Assembly (NCBI RefSeq): GCF_036588685.1
Contig: NC_086384.1
Span: 42,036,001-42,100,000 of the forward strand
Source: Mytilus trossulus
Taxonomy: Eukaryota
Length of the DNA stretch: 64,000 nt
Direction of reading: 5' to 3'
Shown: positions 7,683-61,268 of the stretch, piece after piece
Position numbering within the stretch: position 1 is the first letter of the stretch
How the letters are laid out: each line of letters opens with the position of its first letter
The notes under the pieces: model-generated
The model's input: the letters and a program-made list of their open reading frames with translations, nothing else
Database searches by the model: none
What the model was told of the DNA's origin: nothing
Made by a program: the position numbers and the translations under genes

Positions 7683-7874
7683 AGATAGACCAGTGACTGG
7701 AGCAGAAAATGTTACAACGACTTCCCATCCAACGACTTCTTCCGTGAGGGCAAATGTTAAGTGACCTTCGAATTTTCCATTACCTTGGTCTCGAATTTGG
7801 GTCATAGGTACTGATATATCAGCAGCAATGGCAGCAGACGGCAAAATTATCAGCAAAGCAAGTAGCTCCAGCAT
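7683..7874 (-). CDS. GH9 endo-beta-1,4-glucanase, coding exon 1 (signal peptide + start of CBM2-like module)
   Basis: ATG at 7874; MLELLALLIILPSAAIAA signal peptide, then DISVPMTQIRDQGNGKFEGHLTFALTEEVVGWEVVVTFSAPVTGLS; GTAAGT donor; 192 nt, phase 0. Confidence 0.85.
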
Positions 7875-8597
7875 AGTGATATGTATTATGTCACAACGGC
7901 GAGCTTGAAAAGGTATGGTAAAGGTTGAGATATTAAAAATGTCAATATGGTAAATATTGTTGTTTAAATTAGAGATTTGTTTTGCAACTGTTATTATAGA
8001 GAAGTTCATTATGGCTATGGTTTGTTAAAGCTCACATATTTGGAACTTGTATTGTAAAAACTCGTACTAATATAAAATAGGTGTTTGTTGCCAGATATGG
8101 TCTATTGTTTTGTTCAAATGATTTTATAACTCCTGTTTTATCGTTTTTAACATGCATTTAAACATATTGTTTTCTGTAGTTTTTTTCTCCTTCTTCATGT
8201 TTCAAACGTCAACGAAATACACAAGTTAAAAACAAAACTAAATGAAAGAAATCCGAGTTTATTGGAAATACAAGTAAACATTTTACTTATTTTACAAAAC
8301 TTAAAACAGTATAGAATAACATAATTTTGAAAAATTATGCTTGTAAATATACATTTATTTACGTTTTCAAGTAATATTATTGAATAAAAATAAATGAAAA
8401 ATTATAATGGAATATGAATACCGACGAATATTAATGAATAGATAATTTAACATATGCTCTTACCTGACTTCACGTCTGAAAAATTCTGTTATCTATAACG
8501 TGTATCACTAGAGAGTCCTCAAAGACACAATAAATGACATTGTCCCAGAAACTTGGCGGGTCACGTTTAACATATATTATGAACCTAGGAATGTACA

Positions 8598-9023
8598 CAT
8601 CTTTTACATAAGCTTTGGATTTCAAATATTTTGGCCACGAGCATCACTGAAGAGACATGTATTGTCGAAATGCGCATCTGGTGCAAGAAAATTGGTACCG
8701 TTAATTTCATTACTACCACTGGGTCGATGCCTCTGCTGGTGGACTATTAATCCCCGAGGGTATCACCAGCCCAGTAGCCAGTACTTCGGTACTGGCATGA
8801 AAATACGGATTTTTTGGTGTTATTTAAATTTGCTGTTACAAAATATTAGAAATTATTATAAATTAAGGAATGTATCTCCCTCATGTAAAGCTCTGATTCC
8901 TTTCATGGATTTGGCTATACTTTTGGACCTTTTGGATTATAGCTCTTCATATTTTATATAAGCTTTGGATTTCAAATACTTTGGCCACGAGCATCACTGA
9001 AAAATTGATACCGTTAATTTTAT
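8598..9023 (+). mobile_element. Retrozyme-like element, family A: 350-nt monomer plus terminal direct repeat
   Basis: cat-tttta-ataagctttggatttcaaata-tttggccacgagcatcactgaa occurs at 8598 and 8948 (period 350). The first copy holds an intact hammerhead; in the second the core is deleted. Confidence 0.85.
8641..8684 (+). ncRNA. Type I hammerhead ribozyme (intact core)
   Basis: GCAUCA-CUGAAGA-GACA(UGUAU)UGUC-GAAA-U(GCGC)AUC/UGGUGC: 6-bp stem I, conserved CUGANGA and GAAA, 4-bp stem II, minimal stem III with palindromic UGCGCA; predicted cleavage after AUC (8678). Confidence 0.9.
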
Positions 9024-9197
9024 TTCGAAATTGTTGATTGACTTTTAGGAAATTATGCCACTCGTACATATTCTAGTTTAGTCAACAGAAGCACATACGT
9101 GTATATTTATAGGCTCTGGTTGAATGTAAGTTGATGGTGCTAACTACTTAATAGCCAGTGCTTTTGTACCAAGACATAAGAAACTGTGGTATGGGTG

Positions 9198-9373: not shown

Positions 9374-9627
9374 TTCTGGGGCCGCAGAAAATGATATTTG
9401 ACTCAAATTTGAAATACAATATGAAAAATTCGTAAATTGTGACATAAAATGAAATAAAATCATAGTTAAAGTCTTTCAATAGGTTTTTAACTGTTCACGT
9501 CTGAATAATTTATCACTTTTACAAATCTATATAATAACCGGAGTTAATTGAACAGTCTATACATTCACTAATTTCTCCAGGGCAGAAAAGTTCTCCAGGG
9601 CAGAAAAGTACTCCAGGGCAGAAAAGT

Positions 9628-12600
9628 TCATTCACTGTCATGTGTACTGCGTATTTCCAACGGATAGAGCTTCACAATCGGACAGTTGGTGATTCCTGTG
9701 TCGGTCTTGATAACAGCTGATCGAATGAGTCCATCCTTTCCACGAACTAAATCTTGTACAACTGCTAATTTCCACATTATACGATTTGTGCCATTGTGTA
9801 CTTGTACAATGTCACCTATTTGTATTGTTTGTTCGTTTCTTCCAGATGTACGGTGGAATTCACGGAGTGACGTCAGATATTCGTGTTTCCATCTTGAGCG
9901 AAAATGGTTAATTAGTTCATTATTTCTCTGTAGATTTTTATTCAGTTTCACGTGCAAATCTTTGGAAGTAACACTGTCAATATTCTGATCCGATCGGTTG
10001 TCAAGTCGACGACCATATAAAAGGTGCGCTGGCGTCAGCGGTTCGGGATCTTTGATATCAGTAGAAATGTGAGTTATAGGACGATTGTTTAGAGTTCCCT
10101 CGATTTCGATTACAATTGTATTCAACATTTCCGTAGTTACACATGACTTTCCCAGTATTGCTTTAATTGACTTTTTCGTGAGTCCAATTAGGCGTTCCCA
10201 AAAGCCTCCAAAACCACGGTGCATGGTTTGGTATGAATTTCCACTCAGTTCCTTGATCGGCGAGTTTTTCTTGTATTCGGTTGTCTTTGCTTGATCTTGT
10301 AATCTTTCCGGCGGCTGCCTTGAATGTTGCTGCATTATCGGACAACATAATCCTTAGTGTAGATCTCCTAGCGACAAATCTTTTAAAAGCAAGCATGAAA
10401 GACTCCTCGGTTAAATCTGTGACTATCTCCAAGTGTACAGCTCGTGTATCGGCGCAAGTGAATAAACAAATATATGCTTTGCTTAATTTATTTGTGTTTT
10501 CCTTGTGTATACAAAGTTCCTGTGAAATCAACGCCGGTTACTGAAAAAGGATAATCGTAGTTGACTCGATCTTTAGGTAGCGGTGGCGGATCTGGTGCGC
10601 TGTAAGGCATTCCTAATATTTTAATGCATTGAACGCATTTACGAATTTGTGATTTTACGCACTGTCTTATTCTCGGTATTCAATATTTCTGTTGAATATA
10701 TGCGATTGTACTGTTAAGTCCGGCATGTAAAGTCTTTGTGTGTGCATCCATTACGATTAAGGACGTAAGACTGTGGTGTGTTGGCAATAACAACGGATAC
10801 TTAGTACTCTCCTTCACAGGTGCGTTTTGTATTCTCCCGGTACAACGTAGTAATCCATCTTTGCCTGTATATAGTTTAAGTTGTCCAACAAGTGGCACTT
10901 TTTTCTGTAAAGATGAATTCAAGCTTTCAATTTCATCCGTAAATGTTTCCTGTTGTACTGTAACTATTAGAACTTTAAATGCTTTACATCGCTCCTCAAC
11001 ACTGATAAATCCGATTGACCGTAAATTCTGTATAAAGCGCAAGACGTATGCTGTTACTCTAATTGCTTTTTTCTAAAGATCTGTATCGTTGTATATCTAT
11101 ACATGAACTTGTCTGTGTTGAAGTATTTATAATTTCATCGTCTGTATTGTCATCACTAACAGCTAACATCGTGCTGCAGTCTTCTATTGTCCTCGTCCAT
11201 CTCGGCCAATTTTCACGATTTAAAATCCATTGTGGACTGTTCCTCCATAGGCTGTTGTTATAAAGGTGTTTAGCGTTAATTCCGCGAGTTAAGTAATCAG
11301 CTGGATTGTCATCTGTTGGACAATAATTCCATTCAGCATTCTGTGTTAATTTTCTTATTTCTTTAAGTCGATTTGCTACGAACGGTTTTGAGTTTTTTGA
11401 CGATTTAATCCAACTCAAAACAATTTGACTATCGCTCCACATATACACATGTTCTGTTGTTATGACTTTGAGAAGATGCGTTGCTAATCTGGCGCCGATA
11501 AGCGCGCCCATAAGTTCTAAACGTGGTAATAAATTGGTTTAACGGGTACTACTCTGTTTTTAGCCATGACGAGGATAGATGAATTTGCTGTAACTAAGTA
11601 AGCAAAGCTCCGTATGCTAACTGACTGGCGTCTATGAAAATATGTAGTGACGTTTTCTCGTTTATAACTCCTTCCGTTAACATTCGTGGAAATACTATTT
11701 TGGTAGCCTCCTCGATATCTAAAGCTATTACCTGCCATTTACTTCTCAGTTTGTAGGACAAAAATTCATCCCAATCCAACTTTGCCTTCCATAAAGTCTG
11801 CATAAACAGCTTAGCTTTCACCGTAATTGGCGTGATTAATCAAAGGGGGTCGAAAATTCTAGAAAATTTGCTCAAAACCTCACGCTTTGTTATCATTTTG
11901 TCCTTTTCCATTAATTCAATCTGTTGAAATTTCAAATCGTCGGATTCCCTATCCCATCTCATGCCTAAAATTTTGACTATGTTGTCATTGTCGCCGATCA
12001 TGTCTAGTCCTGCGACGTTCTGTAATTCCGTACTATTAGAATTCCAAGACCGTAAGTTGAATCCTGCCTCTGACAATAATTTTCTTGACTCCGTGTAGAA
12101 TTTCAAAAGTGATTGTTTATCTGTAAAACTGGTCAGAACGTTATCCACGTATATATTTCTCTGTAATTCTGTTGATGTAGTTGACGGATTATCTCTAAAA
12201 TGTTTCATTAGCGTGGCGCGGAATTTACTCTAAACACTAGCTAGGTCTGGATCATTTCGTTCTTTATCGTCAATTCCCAACGATTCAAGCTTCCAAAATT
12301 TTTCAAGATCGCACTCTTCTTGTTTGTGACATACAAGTATATTCATCATTGAGAAAGATGCATTGCTGGTTCGTGTAGGGACATGACCGGAAAGTAAATA
12401 TCCAATTTTCGAGCTTACTGCGGTTGGGCCGTTTCCACGTACTATTTTGTCTTGAACTATGTCCCAGTAGAAATCACCTCCAATTAATAAGGATATTTCA
12501 AATTGCTCTCCTTCCTTGACTGGGTGTGCTAATTGTAGACCACGTAAATATGAAAACTTCTGAGTTATTCCTATGTTGTGAGTTTGAAGTGGTGAAGCAA

Positions 12601-14231
12601 TGGTTGGTACAATTAAAACTTTAATAGGGATTAAGTCTCCTTCGGTAGACTTAATATTATTTGTTGTTTTGTCAAGATTTCTCACCTTTTTTGTAGTACT
12701 TCCAAATTTAGCTATACTTAATGTTTCAGAACCCTCTTTTTTAATGTCCAATTAAGCTGCTAGTTCTTCTGTTATAAATGAGCGCTGAGCTCCCTCGTCA
12801 AAGAGTATTCTTGCATCTATACATGTATTCTTGTGAACGACTGGACTGAATGCGATTTTCAGTAAAACAGTGGACCTTTCTTCGCTAGCGGTATACAACA
12901 TAGAAGTTTCTGTGTCTACTTTATTTTGCGATTGTTCAGTTTCAATATGATGTTTATTTGAGTACGAGTTCTGTTTACATAATGAAGAGTGATGCTTCCG
13001 GTGGCAACACTTACACGTATTCTTGGATTTGCAATTGGCTATTTTATGCTTACCTAAACAATTAAAGCATAACCTCTTTTCTTTTATAATGGCTACTCTT
13101 TTATCGTGATCTATAACATCTTTACACTCGTTTGGCCAGTGGTTTCCGTCACAATATGTGCATTGTTTCTTCCGATTCGAGTTAAATGATTTGTCTGTTG
13201 TGTTTATCGGACGGGTTTTATCTGTAGTTACGCGTTTAACACCTGTTATGAAATTTGCGCTAGGAGTTGCGGTTAAATACGTCTGTGTATCTCCGTATCC
13301 GGACTCTTGAATAGAAATCTCTTTACCTATCGCGTTTCGAAGGGATTGAATATTCCAACTGTCGCTCCCGTTTTCTCGTGTTATATTTTTTCGTACTTCA
13401 TGCGGTATCTTCCCGAGAATCACTGGTATCAATAGCGATCCGTACATTTTCTGACATTGTCCGAGAGACTCTAGACCCCGTATGTAAGCTTCTGATTTGT
13501 CATGAAATGTTCTCAAACTTTCTAATGTATCATGTGGTGCGGGTATATCAAGTAGTGCTCTCATGTATGCACTAATGATTTTATGTGGTTGGCCATAACG
13601 GTTTCTCAATAATTCAATTGCTTTGTGATAGTTTGGATTTGTCATGGTCAATCCTGAAATTACGTTTGCAGCTTCAAATTGGAGTAATGAGTTCAAGTAC
13701 GAAAATTTCTGAATGTCAGTTAATGTGTGATTGTGATGAATCGTGGTTTCGTATGAATCCCAGAAATATTGCCATTGTAGAATGTCTCCATTAAAATTGG
13801 AAAGATATAGCTTTGGTAGACGATGGTTATTACTTGAGGTCGAACTTGACTGAGATTATGGCTGACTTGTGTGAGTAAATGGGTTTGTGTACGGAACAAA
13901 CTCTGGTGCGTTTGAATCTAGTATCGAAGATGTTGCGTTTGTTACGGGCTTTGAGAACTTCTTAAATTTTCGAATTTTACCCTCTAAATCTAAATAATAC
14001 TCATCTGTTTCAAGAATTTCATTTGTAATATCTTCTGAATCTACTGCATTTAACATTTGTTTGTCTATTGAGGCTAACGTCTTCTTTTTTTTTCTCAATT
14101 GCTTCGAGCAATGTTGATACTTCCTCCGTGTCTATTTGTGAATCTCCGATGGCTTCCTCCAGTTTTTTAAAAACTTTTTTTACCACTGCTTTGTTCCCCG
14201 TTCGCAAGGATTTTAATCGGCTGATGTCCAT
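9628..14231 (-). pseudogene. Disrupted gag-pol polyprotein of the BEL/Pao element
   Basis: Consecutive ORF fragments 14019-14231, 13856-14098, 12752-13696, 12230-12751, 11840-12208, 11594-11821, 11059-11511, 10680-11042, 10163-10531 and 9628-10335, separated by frameshifts or stops. Confidence 0.93.
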
Positions 14232-17320: not shown

Positions 17321-18779
17321 GTATGGATACATGCAATGGTTGACATCTGTGTTTTTTTGTCGATTGTTCTATAAATAGTTGTATCATAAGCAATCATATG
17401 TAACTTTAAGTTTTGTTTATTAATTTGCGTCTCCCTCTGTCATTTTCTTTCCAGTTACTATTCAACTGTTTCATACAAGTATGAACTGTAGCGTTTGTTT
17501 ATAGTGAATAGAAAAGTTGAATAAATCTTCAAACTGAAAATAAAGGAAACATATTAAAACAGTTTAGTGTCATTTGACACTGCAGCTGATAATGAAAACT
17601 CAGATTGGATAACACAAATTTTATTGAAACAATGATATATATTTGATTTATAAAGAAACTAAAATAAAAACAACACAAAAAAAGCTTATGAAAAAAAGGT
17701 TAAGCATAACAACACACACGTCGCATGTTGAGAGTTGCCGAAATATTATCCATAATGAACATTATTCATCTTTTTTTGATAAAAAGAAAATATTTGTTTG
17801 GAAAGTTTGGCCATACCTCATATTAAACAGAATATCAAATCCTTATAGTTACGGCCATGTTGTTTAAAGAGCCTGTGCATTTATATCCGACCCTTTTAAA
17901 GTCTCAGCTAACACTTATTTTGTGAGATTATCAAATTAACACAGCTGAGCAATCTTCAAATAGTATTTTTATCGCTTGTCTACAACAAAATTATACACAA
18001 CAAAATTTATATCAATACACAAGTTCAGTTATGAGTACTCATGATACCTCATGTCTATACTAAAATTGAAAATGAACATGAGTAATTTGTCAAAAAGACA
18101 ACAAACCGGCCAAAGAGTAGAAAACAGACATAGCGAACAAATATCTTTCCCGAAGGCGGGCTAAAGCAAAAGTGTGTTCTAGTTCAGTGGTAATAGATGT
18201 GATACTCCAGAACATATAAATGAACTAAAATAAAAACAAAACAAACATATGAGACCTACAAAGGATATTGGCTACTAACTGGGGACAGGTGCAAACCGCG
18301 GTGGGTCTTTGACATGTTATGTGATATTTCTACCCTTCGCTAGACCTCTAAGTTAATGTAGAATACACATAAACACAGAAATACGCACAGTTACATTCAG
18401 TTTAAAAGAAGTCCGAGTCCGATATCATAATAGGTAACATAAGAAATTAAGCAAAGTGACAATGATTTACAAATATACAAACGACTAATAACAGTCCCTG
18501 ACAGGCCAGCGCAAGGCATCAATTACACTGTTTGAAAGTTTATGTCTCTATTATATGAAAATCAAGCATAAACCCTCCCTTTAGGGTTTAGAATCATACT
18601 TTCATAAAATATACTCATTACATTAATATTTTTGCAATGCATATTGCTATATTTTTTCTCAGACTGTCTATGATGTCTTTACACTAAAGTTGCTGGATGT
18701 ATACTGATTGATGTTTAAACTGATTTAACTACAATGCAGATTTGATTTGTCTTCAGGAAATCAAACAACTGACTGTGTA

Positions 18780-19490
18780 AAAGAGGGACGAAAGATACCA
18801 AAGGGACAGTCAAACTCATAAATCTAAAACAAACTGACAACGCCATGGCTAAAAATGAAAAAGACAAACAGAAAAACAATAGTTCACATGACACAACATA
18901 GAAAACTAAAGAATAAACAACACGAACCCCACCAAAAACTAGGGGTGATCTCAGGTGCTCCGGAAGGGTAAGCAGATCCTGCTCCACATGCGGCACCCGT
19001 CGTGTTGCTTATGTGATTACAAATCCGGTAAAAAGTCTAATTCGGTAGGTCAAATTCATGAAAGGGAAGGTTATTGTAGTTACGACGTAAGGAACATATC
19101 CGATATCATTTGTGAAATGGTTATTCCATAACGGTCAACCAACTCGTGATGGCGTCCGTAAAATTTACGAAGGGATGATTTTAACTTCACCATTTGGAAC
19201 TCTTGATTTAATAGCTTCCTTGTGAGCAGTAACCCTCTATCAAGAAAATCATGATAGGAAATGCAAGCACGGGAATATCGTATCAATTGAGAGATATATA
19301 CCCCGTATGCAGGTGCTGCTGGAATGTTGCTACTTAGAAATGGAAAGTTCACAATTGGAAAGCTGAAATCATCTCTTTTGTCGTAAAGTTTTGTCTTCAA
19401 CCGACCCTCATTGTCAATTTCTAGATGTAAGTCAAGATATGAAGCTGACTTAACTGTATCTGTAGTATCCTTTATCTCCAATTCGATGAA
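18780..19490 (-). mobile_element. 5'-truncated Penelope-like element (RT C-terminus + 3' region)
   Basis: ORF 19080-19505 ELEIKDTTD...SYLDLHL...TKLYDKRDDFSFPIVNFPFLSSNIPAAPAYGVYISQLIRYSRAC. The non-coding 3' part recurs near 15960-16520, 41185-41330, 61577-61786 and 62200-62310. Confidence 0.85.
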
Positions 19491-19759
19491 AACGTTGTCA
19501 ACCAACGGAATGAATGGATAACAACTGTCATATTCCTGGATACAAGCATTTTCTGGAGAGAGAAAAAGATTGGCTCAACGTGGATTTTTAGCCTTCTAAA
19601 TCTTAATGTGTTAATGTGACAATAATTGTACAAAAGAACATATAAAACAGTTTAAATTGCACCATGTATATGCTTTAGAGAGTAAATGACCTCATCACAG
19701 ATACGAGAGAGAACGAAAAACAAGATTGACTTCTTTGTTGTCTTGTTGAATGCTAATGT

Positions 19760-20836
19760 TTATATACATATATGCCAACGATTCAATGTTGCCAAAACTC
19801 TGTTTCTAAATTGTCCACTTAGCCAACTGAATAATAGAAAATTGATTGGTATACTTAGAACAAGTAAAACTCGAGTGATGGAAGACATGGCGTCTAGGAT
19901 ATTGTGTACAATTTCATAATTAGGAAGATCCGTGTACAGAAGAATGGTTGCAGGGATACCAGGTAAGAGGAATATGAGAGAAATTACAGTTGTAGCCATT
20001 GTTACTTTTGCAAGTCTTGTATCTGCAATTTCCCTTTCGGTACTCGCTCTTTGAAGACGTTTTCGAATCTCAACTTGACTTTTTACAAGATGCCGAATAC
20101 CTACAAACAAGCAAATCATCAATATACCAGGTAAAACCTGTTGTACTATATCATTGATGATCGTAATAATAAATTCGTGATCTCTATTGCGCATGTGTAT
20201 ATTTGTGAAAATATGTGGATTGCGACATATTTCTTTTACTTTCTTTGTTGTCTTGTCAACTGTCATAACCTTTTCAAATCTAACATGTAGAAAATAATAA
20301 GTAACAGATATGGTACACGAAACAAGCACTGACAGTGTTACATACAAAACACTTGCTTTTGTATTAACGATGACTTTAAATGTCAGAGGTTTATAAAACA
20401 TCATGAACACCATTAATGCTTGACCAACTTTAAGCCATTGTGAAATTGTTCGCATAGCATTTGGAACGAATACACCTACCGCCTCATACACGTAGCACAA
20501 CTCATACTTAATGTAATAATCCTTTGACGAATAAACGACTATGAGGGCTATATTCTGAACCACTAACCCTGCTATGTCGAGACTAGTGTAAGCTGTCATT
20601 AGCGCAAATTTTGTTAAGTAACTCCCAATCCAAATAAGTCTTATTGACAATACCAACCAAATCACGAGCAAAACTATGAAAATCGGTTGGCAGTAAAGAT
20701 AATATGCTATGGTTGTATTTGTGGCTGACCTCTTTGGAGAGTAAAAGGCGGCTTCTTGTATTTGTTGAATAGTTTTAACATCAGGAAGACTTTTAAGCAC
20801 TGATGATAACCATGCTGTTATGTTTGATGGTGGCAT
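19760..20836 (-). CDS. Orphan class A (rhodopsin-like) GPCR, FMRFamide/srw-like putative chemoreceptor, copy 1
   Basis: 358-aa intact ORF with seven hydrophobic segments, TM2 SLD, TM3-top Cys (YELCY), YKPL in ICL2, ECL2 Cys, TM5 LPG, TM6 LPG, TM7 PINFLLF followed by SGQFR helix 8; tttcAG acceptor 14 nt upstream of the ATG. Confidence 0.88.
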   Translation of the reverse strand: MPPSNITAWLSSVLKSLPDVKTIQQIQEAAFYSPKRSATNTTIAYYLYCQPIFIVLLVIWLVLSIRLIWIGSYLTKFALMTAYTSLDIAGLVVQNIALIVVYSSKDYYIKYELCYVYEAVGVFVPNAMRTISQWLKVGQALMVFMMFYKPLTFKVIVNTKASVLYVTLSVLVSCTISVTYYFLHVRFEKVMTVDKTTKKVKEICRNPHIFTNIHMRNRDHEFIITIINDIVQQVLPGILMICLFVGIRHLVKSQVEIRKRLQRASTEREIADTRLAKVTMATTVISLIFLLPGIPATILLYTDLPNYEIVHNILDAMSSITRVLLVLSIPINFLLFSWLSGQFRNRVLATLNRWHICI

Positions 20837-21084
20837 ATTGATGCAAATACCTGAAACAAAAACGAAACATATACGTGAATTAAAATCGCACTGACAGTGT
20901 ATGAATATCCTACTTTCAAAATATTTGTATATATTATATACTCACAACGTATGCTAAACACAGAACATTTGAACGACAGTGTTGAATATTTATGTGTTTT
21001 GAAATGTTTGACTGACACAAACCTTAATTCTATTTGATCGTTTTGCTTGATTATTATAAAAAAAGAAACATATACATGTTCTAA

Positions 21085-26760: not shown

Positions 26761-27322
26761 ATCAAAGGTATCAGGCTTACAATTTAATTCGCTAGACGCG
26801 AGTTTCGTCTTTATATTTATAAGCCTCATCAGTTAAGCTAAGTTGAAAAAAAAAAACAAATTTGAAGAGCATTGAGGACCCGAAATTACAATAAGTTCTT
26901 CCAAATACGCCTAAGATAATCATTCATGAGAAAAGAAAAGCCTTTGTATATAGAAACAATTAAACTTATATAGACAGGAAATTGATAAAAAATAAAATAC
27001 CATACAATTGATATTTGTGTAAACACCGAAGTGCTGACTACTGGGCTTGTGATACCCTTGGGGACTAACCGTTCACCAACAGTATCATCGACAAAGTGGT
27101 GTTAATTAGTATCAAAGGTACCAAGCTTATACTGTAATTCGTCAGACGCGTGTCGTCACAATAAAACTCATCAGTGACGCTTAAGTATAATACAATCCTG
27201 GGATAAGGAAATTCTTAGTATTTCAAAAAATTCATACTTGTTTAGACAGGAATTTTATAAATTTTACTATATAATTGATAATCATGTCAACACCGAAGTG
27301 CAGACTGCTGGGCTTGTGATAT
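26761..27322 (-). mobile_element. Retrozyme-like element, family B, tandem partial dimer with degenerate hammerheads
   Basis: atcaaaggta.ca.gctta at 26761 and 27111 (period 350); hammerhead remnants near 26790-26840 and 27140-27180. Confidence 0.75.
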
Positions 27323-29814
27323 AATGGGGGGTCTACAATTAGCTAAATTTTACTTTTATTGAAAAGATTACACAAATGATCTTAATGAAGATACACAATG
27401 ATAACAAATGATATCAAATTAACATTTACCATTTTGTGTTGATTTAAATATGCGATTTAGGATTTGTATTTTTCAAGAACAAATTCACCTAAATGATGTT
27501 TAAAAAGAAATAATAAAGATTGTTAAAAATAAAAGTTCGATAAAATCACAAAATGTAATCAAATGTACTTAATAATGAAACGTTATGCAACATTATTGGC
27601 AGTCTAAGAACGCATCTGTTATTTTTCAATTGGCTTTAGATTTGAACAGAGATGAGAAACTTTCTGTCAATTTTTCAAAACAAGTTTCTTGATAGTTCTT
27701 AACTAAAACTCGTTTTTGTTTGTTAATTGAAACTGGTATGTTTCCCGTAAACGAAAGTCAGTTTTACACATTTATAAAACCTACTCAATTAGTTTGAACA
27801 TTTTAAATAAGCATGATCAAACTTTAATTCTCATACCCGACTGTTGTTTTTGCTGTGTAATTGTTGTTCGCGTTTCATAAACTTGTGTAATGCATTGTAT
27901 TGAATTGTTGGTAATTTAAAGATTCTACACTGCACAGAGGAATCAACTTTAAACAATACTATTTGATACTTGCATTTGTCATCGTCTTTTGTTCAATCTT
28001 TATTTAATGACTAAAAACAAGCATTTCTAAAATCATAAATTAAGGTTATCATGAAAACTCTGCTTTGATGTTAATTCATTTGTAATAGACAATTTTGTAC
28101 TAATTATATGTTCTATCATAATAAATTTTCCAAAACGATTTGATTACGTTTTACATAATAGGACAATAGTAACATAGGCAAATCACAGTGGCACAGGACG
28201 AAATTAATCATTATTAGTAATTAAATCTTCCAAACGTATGCCATATATCACTCTACACAAACTGCTGTTATACACGTTTTTTTTTTGCTGTGTATGAAAG
28301 GTAAAGTTATGGTAATTTGGTTCGACTCGTCCCTTTACAAATGTAACTTTACTGCACATATAATGAAAATCTAAACATTGGTGGAAAACAGATAAATGCA
28401 AACAGTTATGACACATGCAATTGTACAGTTTAACTATTCATGATCATTAATCATCGAACCTAAAATAGCCAAATTATTTCTATGGAGATTTTTAACTAAG
28501 GGAGTTGTTTATTTCTTTGCCTGTTTTTATTCTGTAGTTTGTCATTTGGTCCCTTTTTGTTGTGGATATTTATTTCCCAGAGGGTATCACCAGCCTAGTA
28601 GTCAGCATTTTTGTGTTGACTTGAGTTATCATTGATATAGTCATAATCATAAATTAACTGTTAACAAAATGTTGAATTTTTGAAATACTAAGGATTTTAT
28701 ACATCAGGATTATATAACCTTAGTAGTATTTGGCAAACCTTTAAGACATATTTGGTCCTCCATGCTCTTCAACTGCGTACGTTATTTGGCACTTTAACAG
28801 TTTTTGATTCCAGCGTCAGTGATGAATCTTTTGAAAATGAAACACGTGTCTGACGTAAATATAAAGTTTTAATCCTGGTATCTATGAGTTTATTTGTTAT
28901 ATTTTTGCCTAGGCATTTTCAACTCATGAGTTTGATTGTTTCTTTTCCCTAATGCAATGGCAAAATCAAAAGTTCAAACACTTCAAACGAACGAGTGACA
29001 CCTGTCATATTCTTGACTTGAGACAGGCATTTACATATGTAGAAAATGGTTGATTAAACGTCGTTTTATAGCTAGCTAAACTACTGTTATCATAATGTAT
29101 CTGAAATCTCTATGTAATATCTTCGTGTTAAAACATTAGAATCATTTTATCATGTTTATGCTGTACTTTTGAAATATTTTTCCTTTTCAGATGTTGCTGT
29201 TAACAACCTGTTTTGACTTATATTTCGTGCCAATCTGCTTTTAATCCATAGCGTCATGTACATTTACACCTTTTTACATGAAATTAACCTTAATCTTTTA
29301 ATCTGTAAGTTAAAAATTAATTTGCCTTTATATATAGCTATGATTATATTGTCATAAAAAAGTTTAATATAGTCAAACTCATCATTTGTATTTGCACCAG
29401 CCGCCTGTTTCGTCTTCACAAGACTCATCAGTGACGCTCGAATAAAAAAAGTAGAAAGGCCAAATAAAGTACGAAGTTGAATAACATTGAAGGCCATAAA
29501 TTCCTAAAAGTTCTGCAAAATTCAGGTAAGGTAATATATTTACTCACTTTTAGTGAATGACCTTCATAGAGAGTATACGAATTGAAAATATTTACTTTTC
29601 AATCAAACATCAACTCTTTTTTTACTTTTTAAATAAATCTTATATAAAAATCTTATTACAATGTTTAGTCAGAGGAATTAAAGTCCTGTCCAACCACCCT
29701 TATGCTGAATTCAGAAGGAAATTACCAAATCTAGAAATTCTCATATACAAATGCTATCTGACAAAAATGTCTGATCAGAAGAAGAAGATTGATACATGTA
29801 GGAACACAACTTAA

Positions 29815-30165: not shown

Positions 30166-32652
30166 GATGCGAGGATCAAAAATTTATATTTGCGCCAGAC
30201 GCTCGTTTTGTCTCCAAATACTGATCAGTTCATTTGAATGAAAAAATGTTTAGAAGGCCAAATAAATTACGAAGTTGAAAAGCATCGAGGAACAATAATT
30301 TCTACAGGTTTTGCCAAATACAGCTAAAGTAACATATTCCTGAGGTAGAAAAGCCTCTAGGTTAGTTTTTTAAACAATCAAAGTTTTGTAAACAGTTAAT
30401 TTATTATTATGACCATATCAAGGATAATTCATGTCAACACAGAAGTGCTGACTACTGGGCTGGTGATACCCTTGACCAATCAAATCACATATACTACGGA
30501 ATAAAGGAGTAACGTACTGTGAATTTACTCACAACTCGAAATAAACCCCCTAAACACGGACACAGGGGGTAATCCCAAATATGTATACGTCTGTTCTTTT
30601 TACGTTTGAATTTTCATTTAAATGTGTATAGATTGCTTCACTTTCTTAATTTTTTAACATCTATATTATCAGCAATTAAAGAAGGGCTTCTAAATTTTTG
30701 CCAAACTATTTACACTAGGGGTGGTGTGAATCAGAAGCTGGAGACAATTACCCTTTGCATACGTATAACCCATCGCAAACTAAAACACGAATTGCGAGAA
30801 CCTGTCTTGCTTGGTCATGTTGTTTACTTGAAGTAGTCTTAACGTGTAAGATAAAACTTAAATCAGACGGATTATGACGTCTTTACACCAGATCAAGTGA
30901 ATGTGTGAGCTTATTAGAAGAAGTTTAATCTATAAGTGAACCAACATGACATTATTGTGAGTACTATGTCTTTGTCAGTATTGATTGTTTTTATGCTTCG
31001 TGTTCCAATCTGATATATCAACTATTTTTTTAAATTAACATGCAGAATAGTTAATATTGTCATAATAAGTTATGATACTTACGATACTAAGGCGACATTA
31101 ATAAATCGAAAGAAAAACAATTATATACAAAACATAAATTAGAAAATTTAATACTGATCCCAACATAAAACCTAGGTGTGCTTGAAGGCTGAGAAAATCA
31201 TGCTCCGCATATTGCACCCGACACATTGCGCAATCAAGAACAAACCCGGTTCTTTTTTAGGTCTAATACAATAAGTCACAAAATGGTTACATAACGTAGA
31301 AGTTTTCAAATATTTATGCTATTTTTTGTATCTCAGTAGTATATAACCTTGCTTGTGGCTTTATTTGATTAAACTTCTTGGAATTCTAGTTCCTTAATTC
31401 ATTACAACTTCAAAATCTAGTTGGTATTTCGAACCTTTTTGATTGGAGAGTTACTGATGAGTATTTTGCAGACGAAACGCGGGTCTTTGATACAAACCTT
31501 TTACCCTGGAAACCATGACCACTTTATGATAAGTCAATGGGTGTTTTTTTTCTTCTAATGTATATTTTCTCCAACATTGTTTGTGCAGGATAACCATTTT
31601 ATTCACACTTTATATTGTGCACACTGTTGGATTGAAGATCATAATTATATGTTTAACAACCTATATCATCTATAGTGAAATCGGCTGCTATTTTAAGCAG
31701 ATCATTCAACTGAATGGAATGATAATTTACTATGTTTCTGTAATGTTAGATGCACATTATATTTTGAATATCATTGAACAAATTTATGTTTATTAAGCCA
31801 TAATAAAAAAAAATTAGTGATTTAAAACAACACGAATAAAACTACAACTGTTACAGTAAAATATGTATTGTTGACTTTAGAATATTGGCGGTTCCATATA
31901 ATTGTTTCTTTTCCGAAAGATGGTTGTTGACTTTTATTTATCCCGGTTTTTATCGAGTGCAAATAAAACTCTGGCTTTATTTTTCTTAAGTTGTATTTTA
32001 TATTTTCTATACCCATCTTGAAAATATTGGAGAAAGAGCTCAATAAATGTAACATTTGTACCTCGTCAGCATTTATCTTTTTATAACGGTTTCCTACATT
32101 ATACATGTAATAGAAAGAAATTACAATTTACCCCTTTCTTTTTGACAACTTAATGATAGTAGTTTTTATGTTATTAGCTTGTTTTTAATAATTAAAATTT
32201 GACACATTTCTTTATTATAGCCAAAATAAATGCCACAATTGTTTCATTCTTTATAATATCTTATTGATGATTTTAAATTTTCCTTGATTACTAGTATGTA
32301 TAAGTCAAGCCAAATTTATTGATCATCTTTTTTTTTCTATGAAACTTCGATCAAGAGTCACACATTTCTATCAAGTTTATAACTAAAGATATATACTTTT
32401 TGCATTTTATAATTACAAAAAAATGGGTTATATTTGCAAATAAACATATTCCTATACTAGTCTTGACCTTTCAATTTTATTTTGGAACCTTTTGATCCAT
32501 TAACAGAGTACTTTCTGCTTGCTAGAAGTGTCTCAACTAATACAAAAATCAGATCACACAACGGACATCATTGTCGAATTCAGCAAAAGATATTACAATA
32601 GTTTTTTTATCTACTAGTTATTTAAAATAAATCCAGATGAAATATCATACAA

Positions 32653-41994: not shown

Positions 41995-43083
41995 TTAACA
42001 CGATTTACATATATGCAAACGCTTCAAAATTTTAAAAACTCTACTTCTAAATTGTCCGTTAAGCCAACTGAATAAACAAAAATTGATTGGTATACTTAGA
42101 CCAAAAAAAAGTCTACTGATGGTACTAAGGATTTCTAAGAATATGTGTATAGATTCAGTCAATGGTAAATCTGTGTATACCATAATGGTTAATGAAATGT
42201 CAGGTATAACGAATATGACATAAAGTAATGTTGCAATTAATGTTACCTTTGAAAGTCTTATGTCTGATTTTTCTCTTTCTGTGCTCTCTACGTTCAGACT
42301 TTTTCGGGTCTTAATCTGCTGTTTTAATAGTCGATGAATGCATACAAACAAAATAGTCATAGATATTCCAGGTATCATGTGTTGTACTATATCATTAATA
42401 ATCGTAATGATAAATTTTGAAAATCTATATGTTTTAAATACGTTGTTATCAGTAAAAACAAAAGACTTGCGGCATACTTCATGCACTTCATATGTTGCCT
42501 TATCGAGTACTGTTGCTTTTTCAAATTTAACATTGACTAAATAGAATATAGTAGATATAGAACATCCTAAAAATACTGACAATGTTATAAACAATACACT
42601 TGCCTTTGTATTAACAATAATTTTAAATCTCAAAGGCTTGTAAAGCATAATAAAAACCGTTAATGTTTGACCAACTTTAAGCCATTGTGCAATCGTGTGC
42701 AAACACATTGGAAGAAAGGTAAATGCCGCTTCATAAACGTAACATAATTCATATTTAAGGTAATTGTCTGTTGTCGAGATAACCGTTATCAGGGCTATAT
42801 TCTGCACTACTAACGCTGCTAGGTCGAGACTAGTATATGCTGCCATTAGTCCAAAGTTTTTCTTGTGATTTCCTATCCAGACAAGGTTCAACATTAGTAT
42901 CATCCAAATCACCAGGAAAAATATGAAAACAGGTTGCCAGTAAAGATAATATGCTATGGTACTGTCCCCGAATGTCTTTTTTGGAGAGTAAAAAGCGTCT
43001 TCCTGCATCTGTAGAACAGTTTTTACATCAGGAACACTTTGAAACACAGACATTAACCATGCTGTAACGTTTAACGGTAGCAT
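41995..43083 (-). CDS. Orphan class A GPCR, copy 2 (paralog of 19760-20836)
   Basis: 362-aa intact ORF colinear with copy 1 (AFYSPK, TIAYYLY, AYTSLD, KYELCYVYEA, QWLKVGQ, YKPL.FK.IVNTKASVL, FIITIINDIVQ, LSIPINF.LFSWL.GQFR); tttcAG acceptor 13 nt upstream of the ATG. Confidence 0.88.
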   Translation of the reverse strand: MLPLNVTAWLMSVFQSVPDVKTVLQMQEDAFYSPKKTFGDSTIAYYLYWQPVFIFFLVIWMILMLNLVWIGNHKKNFGLMAAYTSLDLAALVVQNIALITVISTTDNYLKYELCYVYEAAFTFLPMCLHTIAQWLKVGQTLTVFIMLYKPLRFKIIVNTKASVLFITLSVFLGCSISTIFYLVNVKFEKATVLDKATYEVHEVCRKSFVFTDNNVFKTYRFSKFIITIINDIVQHMIPGISMTILFVCIHRLLKQQIKTRKSLNVESTEREKSDIRLSKVTLIATLLYVIFVIPDISLTIMVYTDLPLTESIHIFLEILSTISRLFFGLSIPINFCLFSWLNGQFRSRVFKILKRLHICKSC

Positions 43084-43569
43084 ATTTATGAAATACCTGA
43101 AACAATAAGAACATGTGCGTTAATTAAAAAAACACGTTCAAATAAAATTGAGAAAGGAAATGGGGAATATGACAAAGCGACAACAACCCGAACATAGAGC
43201 AGACAACAGCCAAAGGCCAAAAGCAGGTTAATCAGTACGGTATCACCAGGATCTCTCAAAACCTACACGTGAAAGGTAAAAATGAATAATCACATAGAAA
43301 CGTTAGGATCTATATGACCACAAAACGCAACGTGAATCATTTTGATTTACAGACTACCAACACGGAAATGTTAATGTAAAGCCTAACATAGCTTGACGAG
43401 TTGGGTTCAACGAGTTTAGTTCCATTTGATATTTAGCCAAACTTTTTCATACTTGTAAAATGAGAACTGCCACATAAGCAAACTAAAAGTTTTATATCAA
43501 AATTGAAATCAATGTATCGATGGTAATTTTTTTAACTATGGCAAAACATGGGAGAAACTTAAAAAAAAA

Positions 43570-53900: not shown

Positions 53901-55836
53901 GTTTGACCGAATTTGTCTTGAAATTAAACTGTTTTAAGTAGTATTTTTCGCCAGCTATATGTTTGAATATACTTGATCGATTTGCAAAGTTTGTGTTTTA
54001 TTTACAGAATTTCTATATTTGTTGTAAAAGTAGACATGGGTATCGGTAATTTAGCATTCAACGGAGAAATGACGAGGAAAAGTGCATGTTTTACGATGTC
54101 GATTTTTGGGAAAAATTTTGGTTGCTTATATAGGGAATCACTGAAGCGTGACTGGAACGGGCCCCCTCTTAGGTCAGTCAGTGGGCCCCCACTTATGAAA
54201 ATTCCTGGATCCGCCACTGAAAACACATTTACATGTTGATTGGAATAGTACGAATTTTTATTGGTTTATAATACAATACAGATTAAGATCGATTACCAGG
54301 TGAAACTTCTGATCTGTGTTTTTAAAGAATGGGTACAAATTATATGTTTAATGTCGATTATGTTAGTATACATCTATATTTATAGGTACTTAGTTTCTCT
54401 CCATTCCAAAATACAGTACTCACAATACCATTTTATTTAGAATTTATGTTTTTCTCTCTTCAAAACTGTCTTTTTGTGAATTTATTCAGCCACACATCAA
54501 ATCATTTGTTTTTGATACCATACACGTTTGTTTTTTAAATGGAATGTCCTATTTCTTTCCCTCTTATGTTCAAGGGAAATCGACGATTTGTCCCCCCCTT
54601 TTTTTCACCGGTCTAGGAAAAACATGATGAATTGACATTTTCTTATAAAAAAAATCATTAATAAAATGCTAAATTATTTTCATAAGATATATTTTGTAAC
54701 TGAATCTGGGACTTAATCATTGAATGCCCGAGCATACAGTTATATTTGTTTATTTTTCTTGTTTCAATTGCCATGTACATGTATGAGGCTAAAAAAAAGG
54801 TCACCATTTGTAAGGATATGAAGGTGTTTTACAGATATAAGAACAATGTACAAAAAAGTAAGTCTAGAGAGCAAGACCAAATAAATATAGAGGTCATGAA
54901 GAAAATATTGATTGATAATATGTTGTTTAACGTCCAGTGGCAAATATTTGATGCATGTTGAGGACAAATATAATAAAGATCAATTGGCAGGAAAAGAAAG
55001 TATAAAGTGAAATAGTAAAAACAAAGATCTAAAAATATAGAGATATAGAAACGATGATCTGAACCCCCACCCCCACCCCTTTAGAAAAAAAAGCAACAAC
55101 CAAAAAACAAAACACTCACACTCGCATATACCGTAAATACATATGTAAAACAATCTAAAATTTTGGTTTCATGGCGCCCCCAGACATCAAGGTTCTGGAT
55201 CCGCCCCTGGCTTAGTGCAGTTTCTTGAGCGTATTGCACCAATGCGGCCTAGGTGGTGTTTAGACGCTCCCCAATATACCGTCGTATATTACAAAAATTG
55301 TGAATGGAAATGGGGAATGTGTAAACGAGACAAAAACCCGACTATCTAGCAGACAAAAGAGGAAGGCATATATTACGGGTCTTCAATGTAGCGAGAAACT
55401 CGTGCGTATACATACATGCATTATTGTATGCACATGCTTGGACTTATAGATGCATATATATACTTGTACAAGTCCAATATTGTGTTATAAAGTATTTCGT
55501 ATAAAAATACAGGAACATTTTAATGCTAATCCAAACGCACAGGTGTCAATATCTGCAAATCTTCCGGTAAATACAAGTTGTCATTTAAAAAAATTGTGAA
55601 ATTATAGTGTATTTTAACCCAAACAAAATTATGGATGAATAGATAAATTTATTTTAAAGAATTCCAATCCCTTAAAAACGAGGCACCATCATATATACTT
55701 GTAAAACAGCTCAAATTCTAATCACTGAAGAGACATGTATTTTCGAAATGTCCATCTGGTGCAAGAAAATTGGTACCGTTAATTTTATTCTATATTAACC
55801 AGTGGCACGTGTCATAATTTTTAAGAAAAGGGATAG

Positions 55837-60933: not shown

Positions 60934-61268
60934 TATCAAAGGTACGAGGATTATAATTTATTACGTCAGACGCACGTTTCGTCTACATAAGACTCATCAG
61001 TGACGCTCATATCAAAATATTTATAAAGCCAAACAAGGACAAAGTTGTAGAGCATTAAGGATCCAAAATTCAAAAAAGTTGTGCCAAATACGGCTAAGGT
61101 AATCTATGCCTGGGATAAGAACATCCATCGTTTTTTCGAAAAATTCATAGTTTTTTTAACAGGAAATTTTTAAAAATTACCACATTCTTGATATTCATGT
61201 CAACACTTAATCGCTTAAGTGTTGAATTCTGGGCTGGTAATACCATCGGGGATTCCACCAGCGGCATA
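60934..61268 (-). mobile_element. Retrozyme-like monomer, family B
   Basis: Near full-length copy of the 350-nt unit at 26761-27110, containing an intact hammerhead. Confidence 0.8.
60963..61006 (-). ncRNA. Type I hammerhead ribozyme (intact core)
   Basis: GCGUCA-CUGAUGA-GUCU(UAUGU)AGAC-GAAA-C(GUGC)GUC/UGACGU: all core nucleotides present, 6-bp stem I, 4-bp stem II; predicted cleavage after GUC (between 60969 and 60968). Confidence 0.9.

Follow-up and report, generated by a model that had tools for sequence, protein, structure and literature searches.

The 64,000-nucleotide stretch of the Mytilus trossulus genome analysed here (the window) carries a repeat with a hammerhead ribozyme next to a cellulase gene, and this locus raises the question of what the element is and how such non-coding repeats are copied and inserted. 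We found that the insertion occupies 8598..9024 on the plus strand. The original prediction had placed the element correctly but closed it at 9023; the real end, 9024, is the fixed end of the family. It had also described a 350-nt unit bounded by direct repeats. A repeat search returned a 54-nt pair (8598-8651 and 8948-9001, 94% identical, spacing 350) and a 24-nt pair (8688-8711 and 9001-9024, spacing 313). These pairs bear out a 350-nt monomer with a partial second copy, but the repeats reflect how 1.3 tandem units overlap and are not terminal repeats. As the second pair is spaced by 313 instead of 350, the second hammerhead is short of 37 nt, and what is left at 8948..9024 (plus strand) is the 5' strand of helix I and CUGAA, followed by the canonical terminal tail. 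The insertion holds one 350-nt unit and the first 114 nt of a second, minus the 37-nt deletion, and has no target-site duplication. Because it stops at the family's fixed point (9024 is unit position 114), it is a 5'-truncated insertion of 1.3 units. With 37 nt gone from the second hammerhead, this copy cannot release a monomer, just as had been predicted. The deletion junction has a single match in the 1.3-Gb genome, the locus itself, and a subfamily carrying the deleted form was therefore rejected.

The divergence of the window copy is ordinary, with 9-17 differences in 289 nt when compared with 17 arrays of the family. The flank of the insertion is single-copy in the genome and offers no paralogous empty site, and no empty allele was present among the joints listed for four DNA runs. 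Alignments of DNA contigs from two related organisms stop at about 8594-8600, which weakly hints at an empty site. All four DNA runs (three studies) cover the 5' junction, by 34, 30, 30, and 30 element-side letters, where the junction rule of 31 letters is reached by the first run only. The window also contains a broken LTR retrotransposon on the minus strand (9630-13900, with DUF5641 and DUF1759), which we take to be of the BEL/Pao type, and an 18-nt triple repeat at 9570-9629. The 8598-9024 element belongs to a very common mussel ribozyme repeat of known type; the copy itself is damaged, ordinary, and likely inert. Two features go beyond the original prediction: the fixed 3' end and a Naiad-type structure at 8712-8778.

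The ribozyme at 8641..8684 (plus strand) is a complete type I hammerhead, as first described. It has the commonest sequence of the family, with 258 identical matches among the fetched, partly overlapping loci. Helix I pairs 8641-8646 with 8679-8684 over 6 bp, helix II pairs 8654-8657 with 8663-8666 over 4 bp and closes a 5-nt loop, and the core consists of CUGAAGA (8647-8653) and GAAA (8667-8670); UGCGCA (8671-8676) and then UC precede the predicted cut after C8678. The core CUGAnGA, GAAA, UH, helices I-III, and the type I topology are all present. A descriptor scan of both strands of the 64-kb window gave two matches, this hammerhead and one of a sister family at 61000 on the minus strand, and the exact core pattern has 5,088 matches in the genome vs none for the reversed pattern. 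The search with Rfam hammerhead models returned no match at the locus, neither at the gathering score nor at E up to 5; this result is a library miss, and the assignment rests on the descriptor and on covariation. Across 10 related hammerheads from three families, 97% of alignment cells are paired and 5 of 14 pairs show double changes, which fall in all three helices and in the palindrome. Covariation of stems I and II across genomic copies is thus present, and since the rows are related we treat it as support and not as a probability. The term "minimal" does not apply. Minimal hammerheads lack helix III and loop 3 and combine a long helix II with a short helix I (PMC4209133), whereas helices of 6, 4, and 2 bp with a palindromic loop represent the canonical metazoan layout of that paper.

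The expectation that this copy should cleave once fared less well. In equilibrium folding of 24 transcript windows, the probability of helix I did not exceed 0.17 in 23 and was 0.47 in the other, and that of helix III was 0. Folding during transcription, before a downstream blocker is made, is not supported, as helix I is already low in short windows. The 8-nt loop III palindrome is predicted to form a duplex of -10.5 kcal/mol, for which a second ribozyme is required; it is kept through double changes in three families, which agrees with the proposed dimeric folding. A single self-cut by the 8598-9024 copy is therefore uncertain in these models, because helices I and III are poorly populated and the dimer partner in cis is deleted.

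A genome search with the unit, covering the best 40 of 1,781 candidates, yielded 139 matches, most of them tandem and 95-97% identical. The arrays analysed come from these best 40, three being identical duplicates, and some exceed 27 units. Across 37 loci, 30 of 35 closed 3' ends fall at unit 110-119, 29-38 nt beyond the cut, and the 38 5' ends vary in position from unit 1 to unit 313. Loose ends at 8712 with unrelated flanks were found in at least 182, at least 141, and at least 98 contigs in three of the four DNA runs. In the window, the tail from the cut site to the fixed genomic 3' end covers 8679..8711 (plus strand, 33 nt) and would place the start of reverse transcription at 8711/8712 in unit phase. 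A short copy of the same family at 55721..55789 (plus strand), made up of hammerhead and tail only, stops at the same fixed point. In 28 insertions, the mean shared word was 5.1 vs 4.9 for mixed flanks, that is, no target-site duplication above chance, and no poly(A) tail was found. The family consists of tandem type I hammerhead units that are non-coding, low in GC, dispersed, and high in copy number, with one chance 149-aa stop-to-stop frame overlapping the 8598-9024 element. This supports the earlier assignment to an already known class, the mussel-type non-LTR retrozymes. The 350-nt family is about 70% identical to other mussel retrozyme families, and fragments of sister retrozymes, one with an intact hammerhead, lie at 60963-61006 (minus strand), 27025-27124, 28562-28605, 30428-30472, and 639-707.

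Directly past the fixed point lies the predicted Naiad-type stem-loop (8712..8778, plus strand), with P1 at 8718-8724/8769-8775, P2 at 8726-8731/8759-8764, and a bulged inner stem. It is identical at 57 of 67 positions to the 5' start of Naiad-2, one of two Naiad families described below. Its alignment score is 94 for Naiad-2 and 49 for Naiad-1, vs 22.5-35 for 13 other GIY-YIG loci, which may miss the 5' start of some Penelope-like element (PLE) families, and at most 35 in 300 shuffles. The two stacked helices fold alike in the retrozyme families and in both Naiads. Fold z values are -3.2 for Naiad-2, -2.6 for the modal retrozyme, and -0.6 for the window copy, which was folded with extra flank and bears a private A at 8750 that breaks one pair of the tip hairpin. 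Within the whole 350-nt unit, the stem-loop helices have probabilities of 0.8-1.0, and P1 reaches at least 0.94 in 6 of 8 circles. In a nine-row alignment, 98.1% of cells are paired and 4 of 12 pairs show double changes, although the rows are related and the changes come from few events, mostly Naiad-1 vs the rest. The published 375-nt Mytilus retrozyme also holds the stem-loop (PMC4918200, Additional file 11). Moreover, 11 curated Naiad consensus sequences in the available part of the PMC8557442 supplement begin, or nearly begin, with words of the motif, and their outer stems change in pairs, as judged by eye. These sequences (CGi, Sglo, Olur, Tgra, Pmar, Mcor, Mgal, Bpla, Skow-1, Pfla-1, and Pfla-2) belong to a list of at least 38 rows. 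From their abbreviations, we take them to be from bivalves and hemichordates.

The Naiad partners were found by a GIY-YIG search and BLAST of the unit against 30 loci, which gave a short match upstream of an N-terminal endonuclease. Naiad-1 has a 1056-aa frame with an N-terminal GIY-YIG and a 4277-nt tandem period, and differs very little from the Naiad_Mgal sequence given in the PMC8557442 supplement as available. Naiad-2 has a 1000-aa frame with DKA that is 56% identical to Naiad-1 over 1009 residues and 44,983 first-look candidates in the genome; its Pfam scores are below cut-off, and its protein word was not found in the same portion of that supplement. The partners show the N-terminal GIY-YIG, CxC, DKA, C-terminal reverse transcriptase, and tandem structure of Naiads. 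A canonical hammerhead was not found in either: Naiad-1 has no core match, and Naiad-2 has two variant-core matches without evident helices. All 50 Naiad-1 ends lie at -1 to +6 of the start structure, comprising 20 of 20 long copies and 30 of 30 pLTR matches, the latter picked by the query ending at that spot and hence informative on read-through only. Two of the 50 (L192 and L154) abut a same-strand, 5'-truncated retrozyme with a canonical end, one from each of two retrozyme families, as expected from template switching or shared targeting. Of 15 Naiad-2 end matches, 9 stop at the structure and 6 run into it as tandem junctions; in tandem copies, the segment directly past the 3' end is 57/67 identical to window 8712-8778, and exact junctions between Naiad-2 and the structure number 98. 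The retrozyme therefore shares both its end point and the adjoining stem-loop with intact Naiads, and Naiad-2 is likely its autonomous partner family.

The window itself contains a 5'-truncated Naiad-2 copy (18779..19510, minus strand) that ends just before the expected place of the start structure. About 165 nt past the end of this fragment, outside the Naiad and downstream of the open reading frame at 19760-20941, lies an Rfam SECIS_1 match (18552-18613, minus strand, 37 bits, above the gathering score), which may be due to chance or be part of another transcript. That frame and the one at 41995-43119, both on the minus strand, are two similar single-exon membrane-protein frames of 393 and 374 aa that look GPCR-like by eye; the former has no Pfam match. 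A GGTAY word 18-24 nt before the fixed end was also seen by eye in all five families, at window 8693-8711 and at the ends of both Naiads and of sister retrozyme families.

We propose, with a probability of roughly 0.78, that this mussel-type non-LTR retrozyme depends for its copying and insertion on a hammerhead-less Naiad whose reverse transcriptase recognises the shared 67-nt stem-loop. Sequence comparison points to the Naiad enzyme as the likely mobiliser. In the 350-nt family, intact tandem arrays would be transcribed, and the transcripts would cut themselves, probably while dimerised by the loop III palindrome, and circularise; sister Mytilus families are expressed as circles, according to passages of PMC7229834. 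A Naiad protein would bind the stem-loop and nick AT-rich DNA, and the fixed ends suggest that cDNA would start just 5' of the stem-loop, 33 nt past the ribozyme cut. PLE reverse transcription is described in part of PMC11167929 as starting at fixed internal sites that equal the genomic 3' ends. The cDNA would run round the circle for a variable distance and so leave fixed 3' ends, scattered 5' ends, and arrays sharing private changes. Because a linear monomer cut at unit 81 would yield no more than 33 nt, any longer copy requires either a circle or a multimer that was not cleaved. At position 8598, 464 nt would have been inserted beside the first exon of the cellulase, with 37 nt of the second ribozyme lost. 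We lean, less firmly, towards a fuller version of this proposal: the retrozymes would be chimeric RNA circles in which a hammerhead module is combined with an initiation element hijacked from Naiads and conserved among Naiads from bivalves to hemichordates. Lying 3' of the priming site, this element would be bound by a telomerase-related reverse transcriptase and would fix where the enzyme starts. Naiads and their parasites alike would then have to use circular or tandem RNA as the template, in a rolling form of target-primed reverse transcription.

The arrays bear on the nature of the template. Each of 16 arrays carries 2-7 array-fixed changes, and distances within arrays are 0.4-12.5 vs 14.6 between arrays. 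Fixed 3' ends, scattered 5' ends, and array-private changes are observed, and copying from circles would account for them, but local homogenisation gives a similar array pattern. The same Naiad helper could instead have used an uncleaved multimeric transcript as its template, with the hammerhead as a passenger. Singleton variants outnumber shared variants in 14 of 16 arrays; the reverse holds in 2 of 16, which fits later unequal exchange or multimer templates, and some arrays contain shared, higher-order variants. Array L033 also shows a recurrent unit without positions 49-210, mixed with full units. An uncleaved template is further favoured by the sparse population of helix I at equilibrium, by the partial tandems that Naiads form without any hammerhead, and by the in vitro insertion of a PLE from unprocessed RNA, where passages of PMC11167929 report that ribozyme cleavage is not needed by PAc, the one PLE tested. 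Against a passenger hammerhead, the core is intact in 132 of 143 array units, and helices I, II, and III and the palindrome covary. In young arrays, moreover, the units are nearly identical and carry changes private to the array (the 10 units of L043 have a mean distance of 0.4), and circles dominate in mussel tissue for the sister families in the available text of PMC7229834. We therefore consider an uncleaved template possible but unlikely, and prefer copying from circles.

Greater doubt attaches to the idea that a canonical PLE with a C-terminal endonuclease and its own hammerhead, or a LINE, mobilises the family and that the Naiad-like segment is a relic, a promoter, or an RNA-stability element. 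Frog retrozymes match PLE pLTRs, as stated in parts of the preprint 10.64898/2026.07.22.740005, and PLEs with their own hammerheads are present in the mussel genome. C-terminal-endonuclease PLEs with hammerheads, including a U3-A8 core variant, were seen at L064, L087, and L089 and at L082 and L110. However, their hammerheads differ from that of the retrozyme, none of the 13 other GIY-YIG loci scores above 35 with the stem-loop, and the family lacks the poly(A) tail or target-site duplication. Nor would a relic or promoter role account for the end that the two elements share, to the base, in front of the structure. A helper of this kind is thus improbable. The closest relative of the hammerhead was considered as a PLE pLTR and rejected, as it is a 570-nt tandem family (L205-L224, e.g. 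G000:C8:63792619-63797182) that has a near-identical hammerhead but no Naiad structure (scores 18-20). Since this family is without the stem-loop, the ribozyme and the start signal are separate modules, and the Naiad link does not extend to every repeat of this type.

The position of the insertion could suggest a role at the cellulase. The first coding exon of this gene lies at 7683..7903 on the minus strand (ATG at 7874), and a downstream exon identifies it as a GH9 cellulase by Pfam PF00759. The element had been placed about 0.75 kb upstream, which holds for the ATG, 724 nt away. A related organism's RNA contig, however, is spliced from 7903 to 8464 and reveals a non-coding first exon (8464..8505, minus strand) whose 5' limit is at least 8505; since the contig reaches 8505, the insertion begins about 90 nt from exon 1. 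Divergent transcription from the promoter would read the ribozyme in sense, and the coverage of the 5' junction in 4 of 4 DNA runs from three studies would also agree with a copy co-opted to regulate the promoter, for example by cutting divergent transcripts. The copy nevertheless carries lesions and ordinary divergence, and with thousands of family copies its closeness to exon 1 is unremarkable, which makes co-option very improbable. Still less credible is spread at the DNA level as a satellite, by unequal crossover or rolling-circle DNA with the ribozyme incidental: arrays of over 27 units and the internal-deletion variant of one array would fit, but the strand-specific fixed end, the variable other end, the dozens of dispersed loci, and the RNA-level covariation in hammerhead and stem-loop largely refute it for dispersal, although it may still act on old arrays.

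The class of the element is known, and what this analysis adds, a Naiad helper and a start signal, is well supported by sequence but stands as a proposal. Dependence on PLEs was proposed in 2020 (PMC7229834) and argued for frogs in the 2026 preprint (10.64898/2026.07.22.740005), as far as the available parts of both go; the question of which helper and which cis signal animal retrozymes use dates from 2020, when PLEs were put forward as candidates only. Our literature search, supplementary files aside, found no paper on a link between mussel retrozymes and Naiads or on the stem-loop. The available text of the preprint has no match for Mytilus, mussel, tail, or bivalve, and PMC7761336 and PMC11722881 have none for Naiad. 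With an intact partner identified, a 67-nt structure that shows natural compensatory changes, and a start site defined to the base, the proposal lends itself to a direct test using a single purified protein and a short RNA. If true, Naiads, which dominate bivalve genomes, would gain their first defined RNA recognition element, and the insertion of DNA copied from a circle would have a natural example.

Among known systems, the non-LTR retrozymes of Mytilus galloprovincialis are closest. In passages of PMC7229834, they resemble the 350-nt family in their type I hammerhead and number about 5,000 copies, and mussel retrozymes are described as repeats of 350-390 nt, which share with this family its tandem units, its low GC, and the absence of an ORF, LTR, PBS, or PPT. 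The same passages name PLEs only as candidates and describe neither a fixed end nor a Naiad signal; a long target-site duplication is listed there as an optional feature, whereas none was found in the 350-nt family. The published 375-nt Mytilus retrozyme (PMC4918200) is a sister of this family, and both have the stem-loop. Naiads, as presented in part of PMC8557442, share with the retrozyme the 67-nt start structure, the end point, 5' truncation, partial tandems, and the lack of a clear target-site duplication. They differ in that they encode an endonuclease-reverse transcriptase and have no canonical hammerhead, while the retrozyme has a hammerhead and no ORF; the passages at hand do not describe the stem-loop. 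Poseidon PAc, in the portion of PMC11167929 available, likewise has a fixed internal start downstream of the hammerhead cut that is mirrored in genomic 3' ends, but it is a canonical PLE with a C-terminal endonuclease, starts in an AC-rich stem-loop inside its ORF, and has no non-autonomous circle. Vertebrate retrozymes, described for Xenopus in parts of the bioRxiv preprint 10.64898/2026.07.22.740005, resemble the mussel ones in their non-autonomous dependence on PLEs. Their homology extends over pLTRs, whereas the mussel match is limited to the 67-nt signal of a hammerhead-less PLE, and the mussel element therefore looks like a chimera of two modules.
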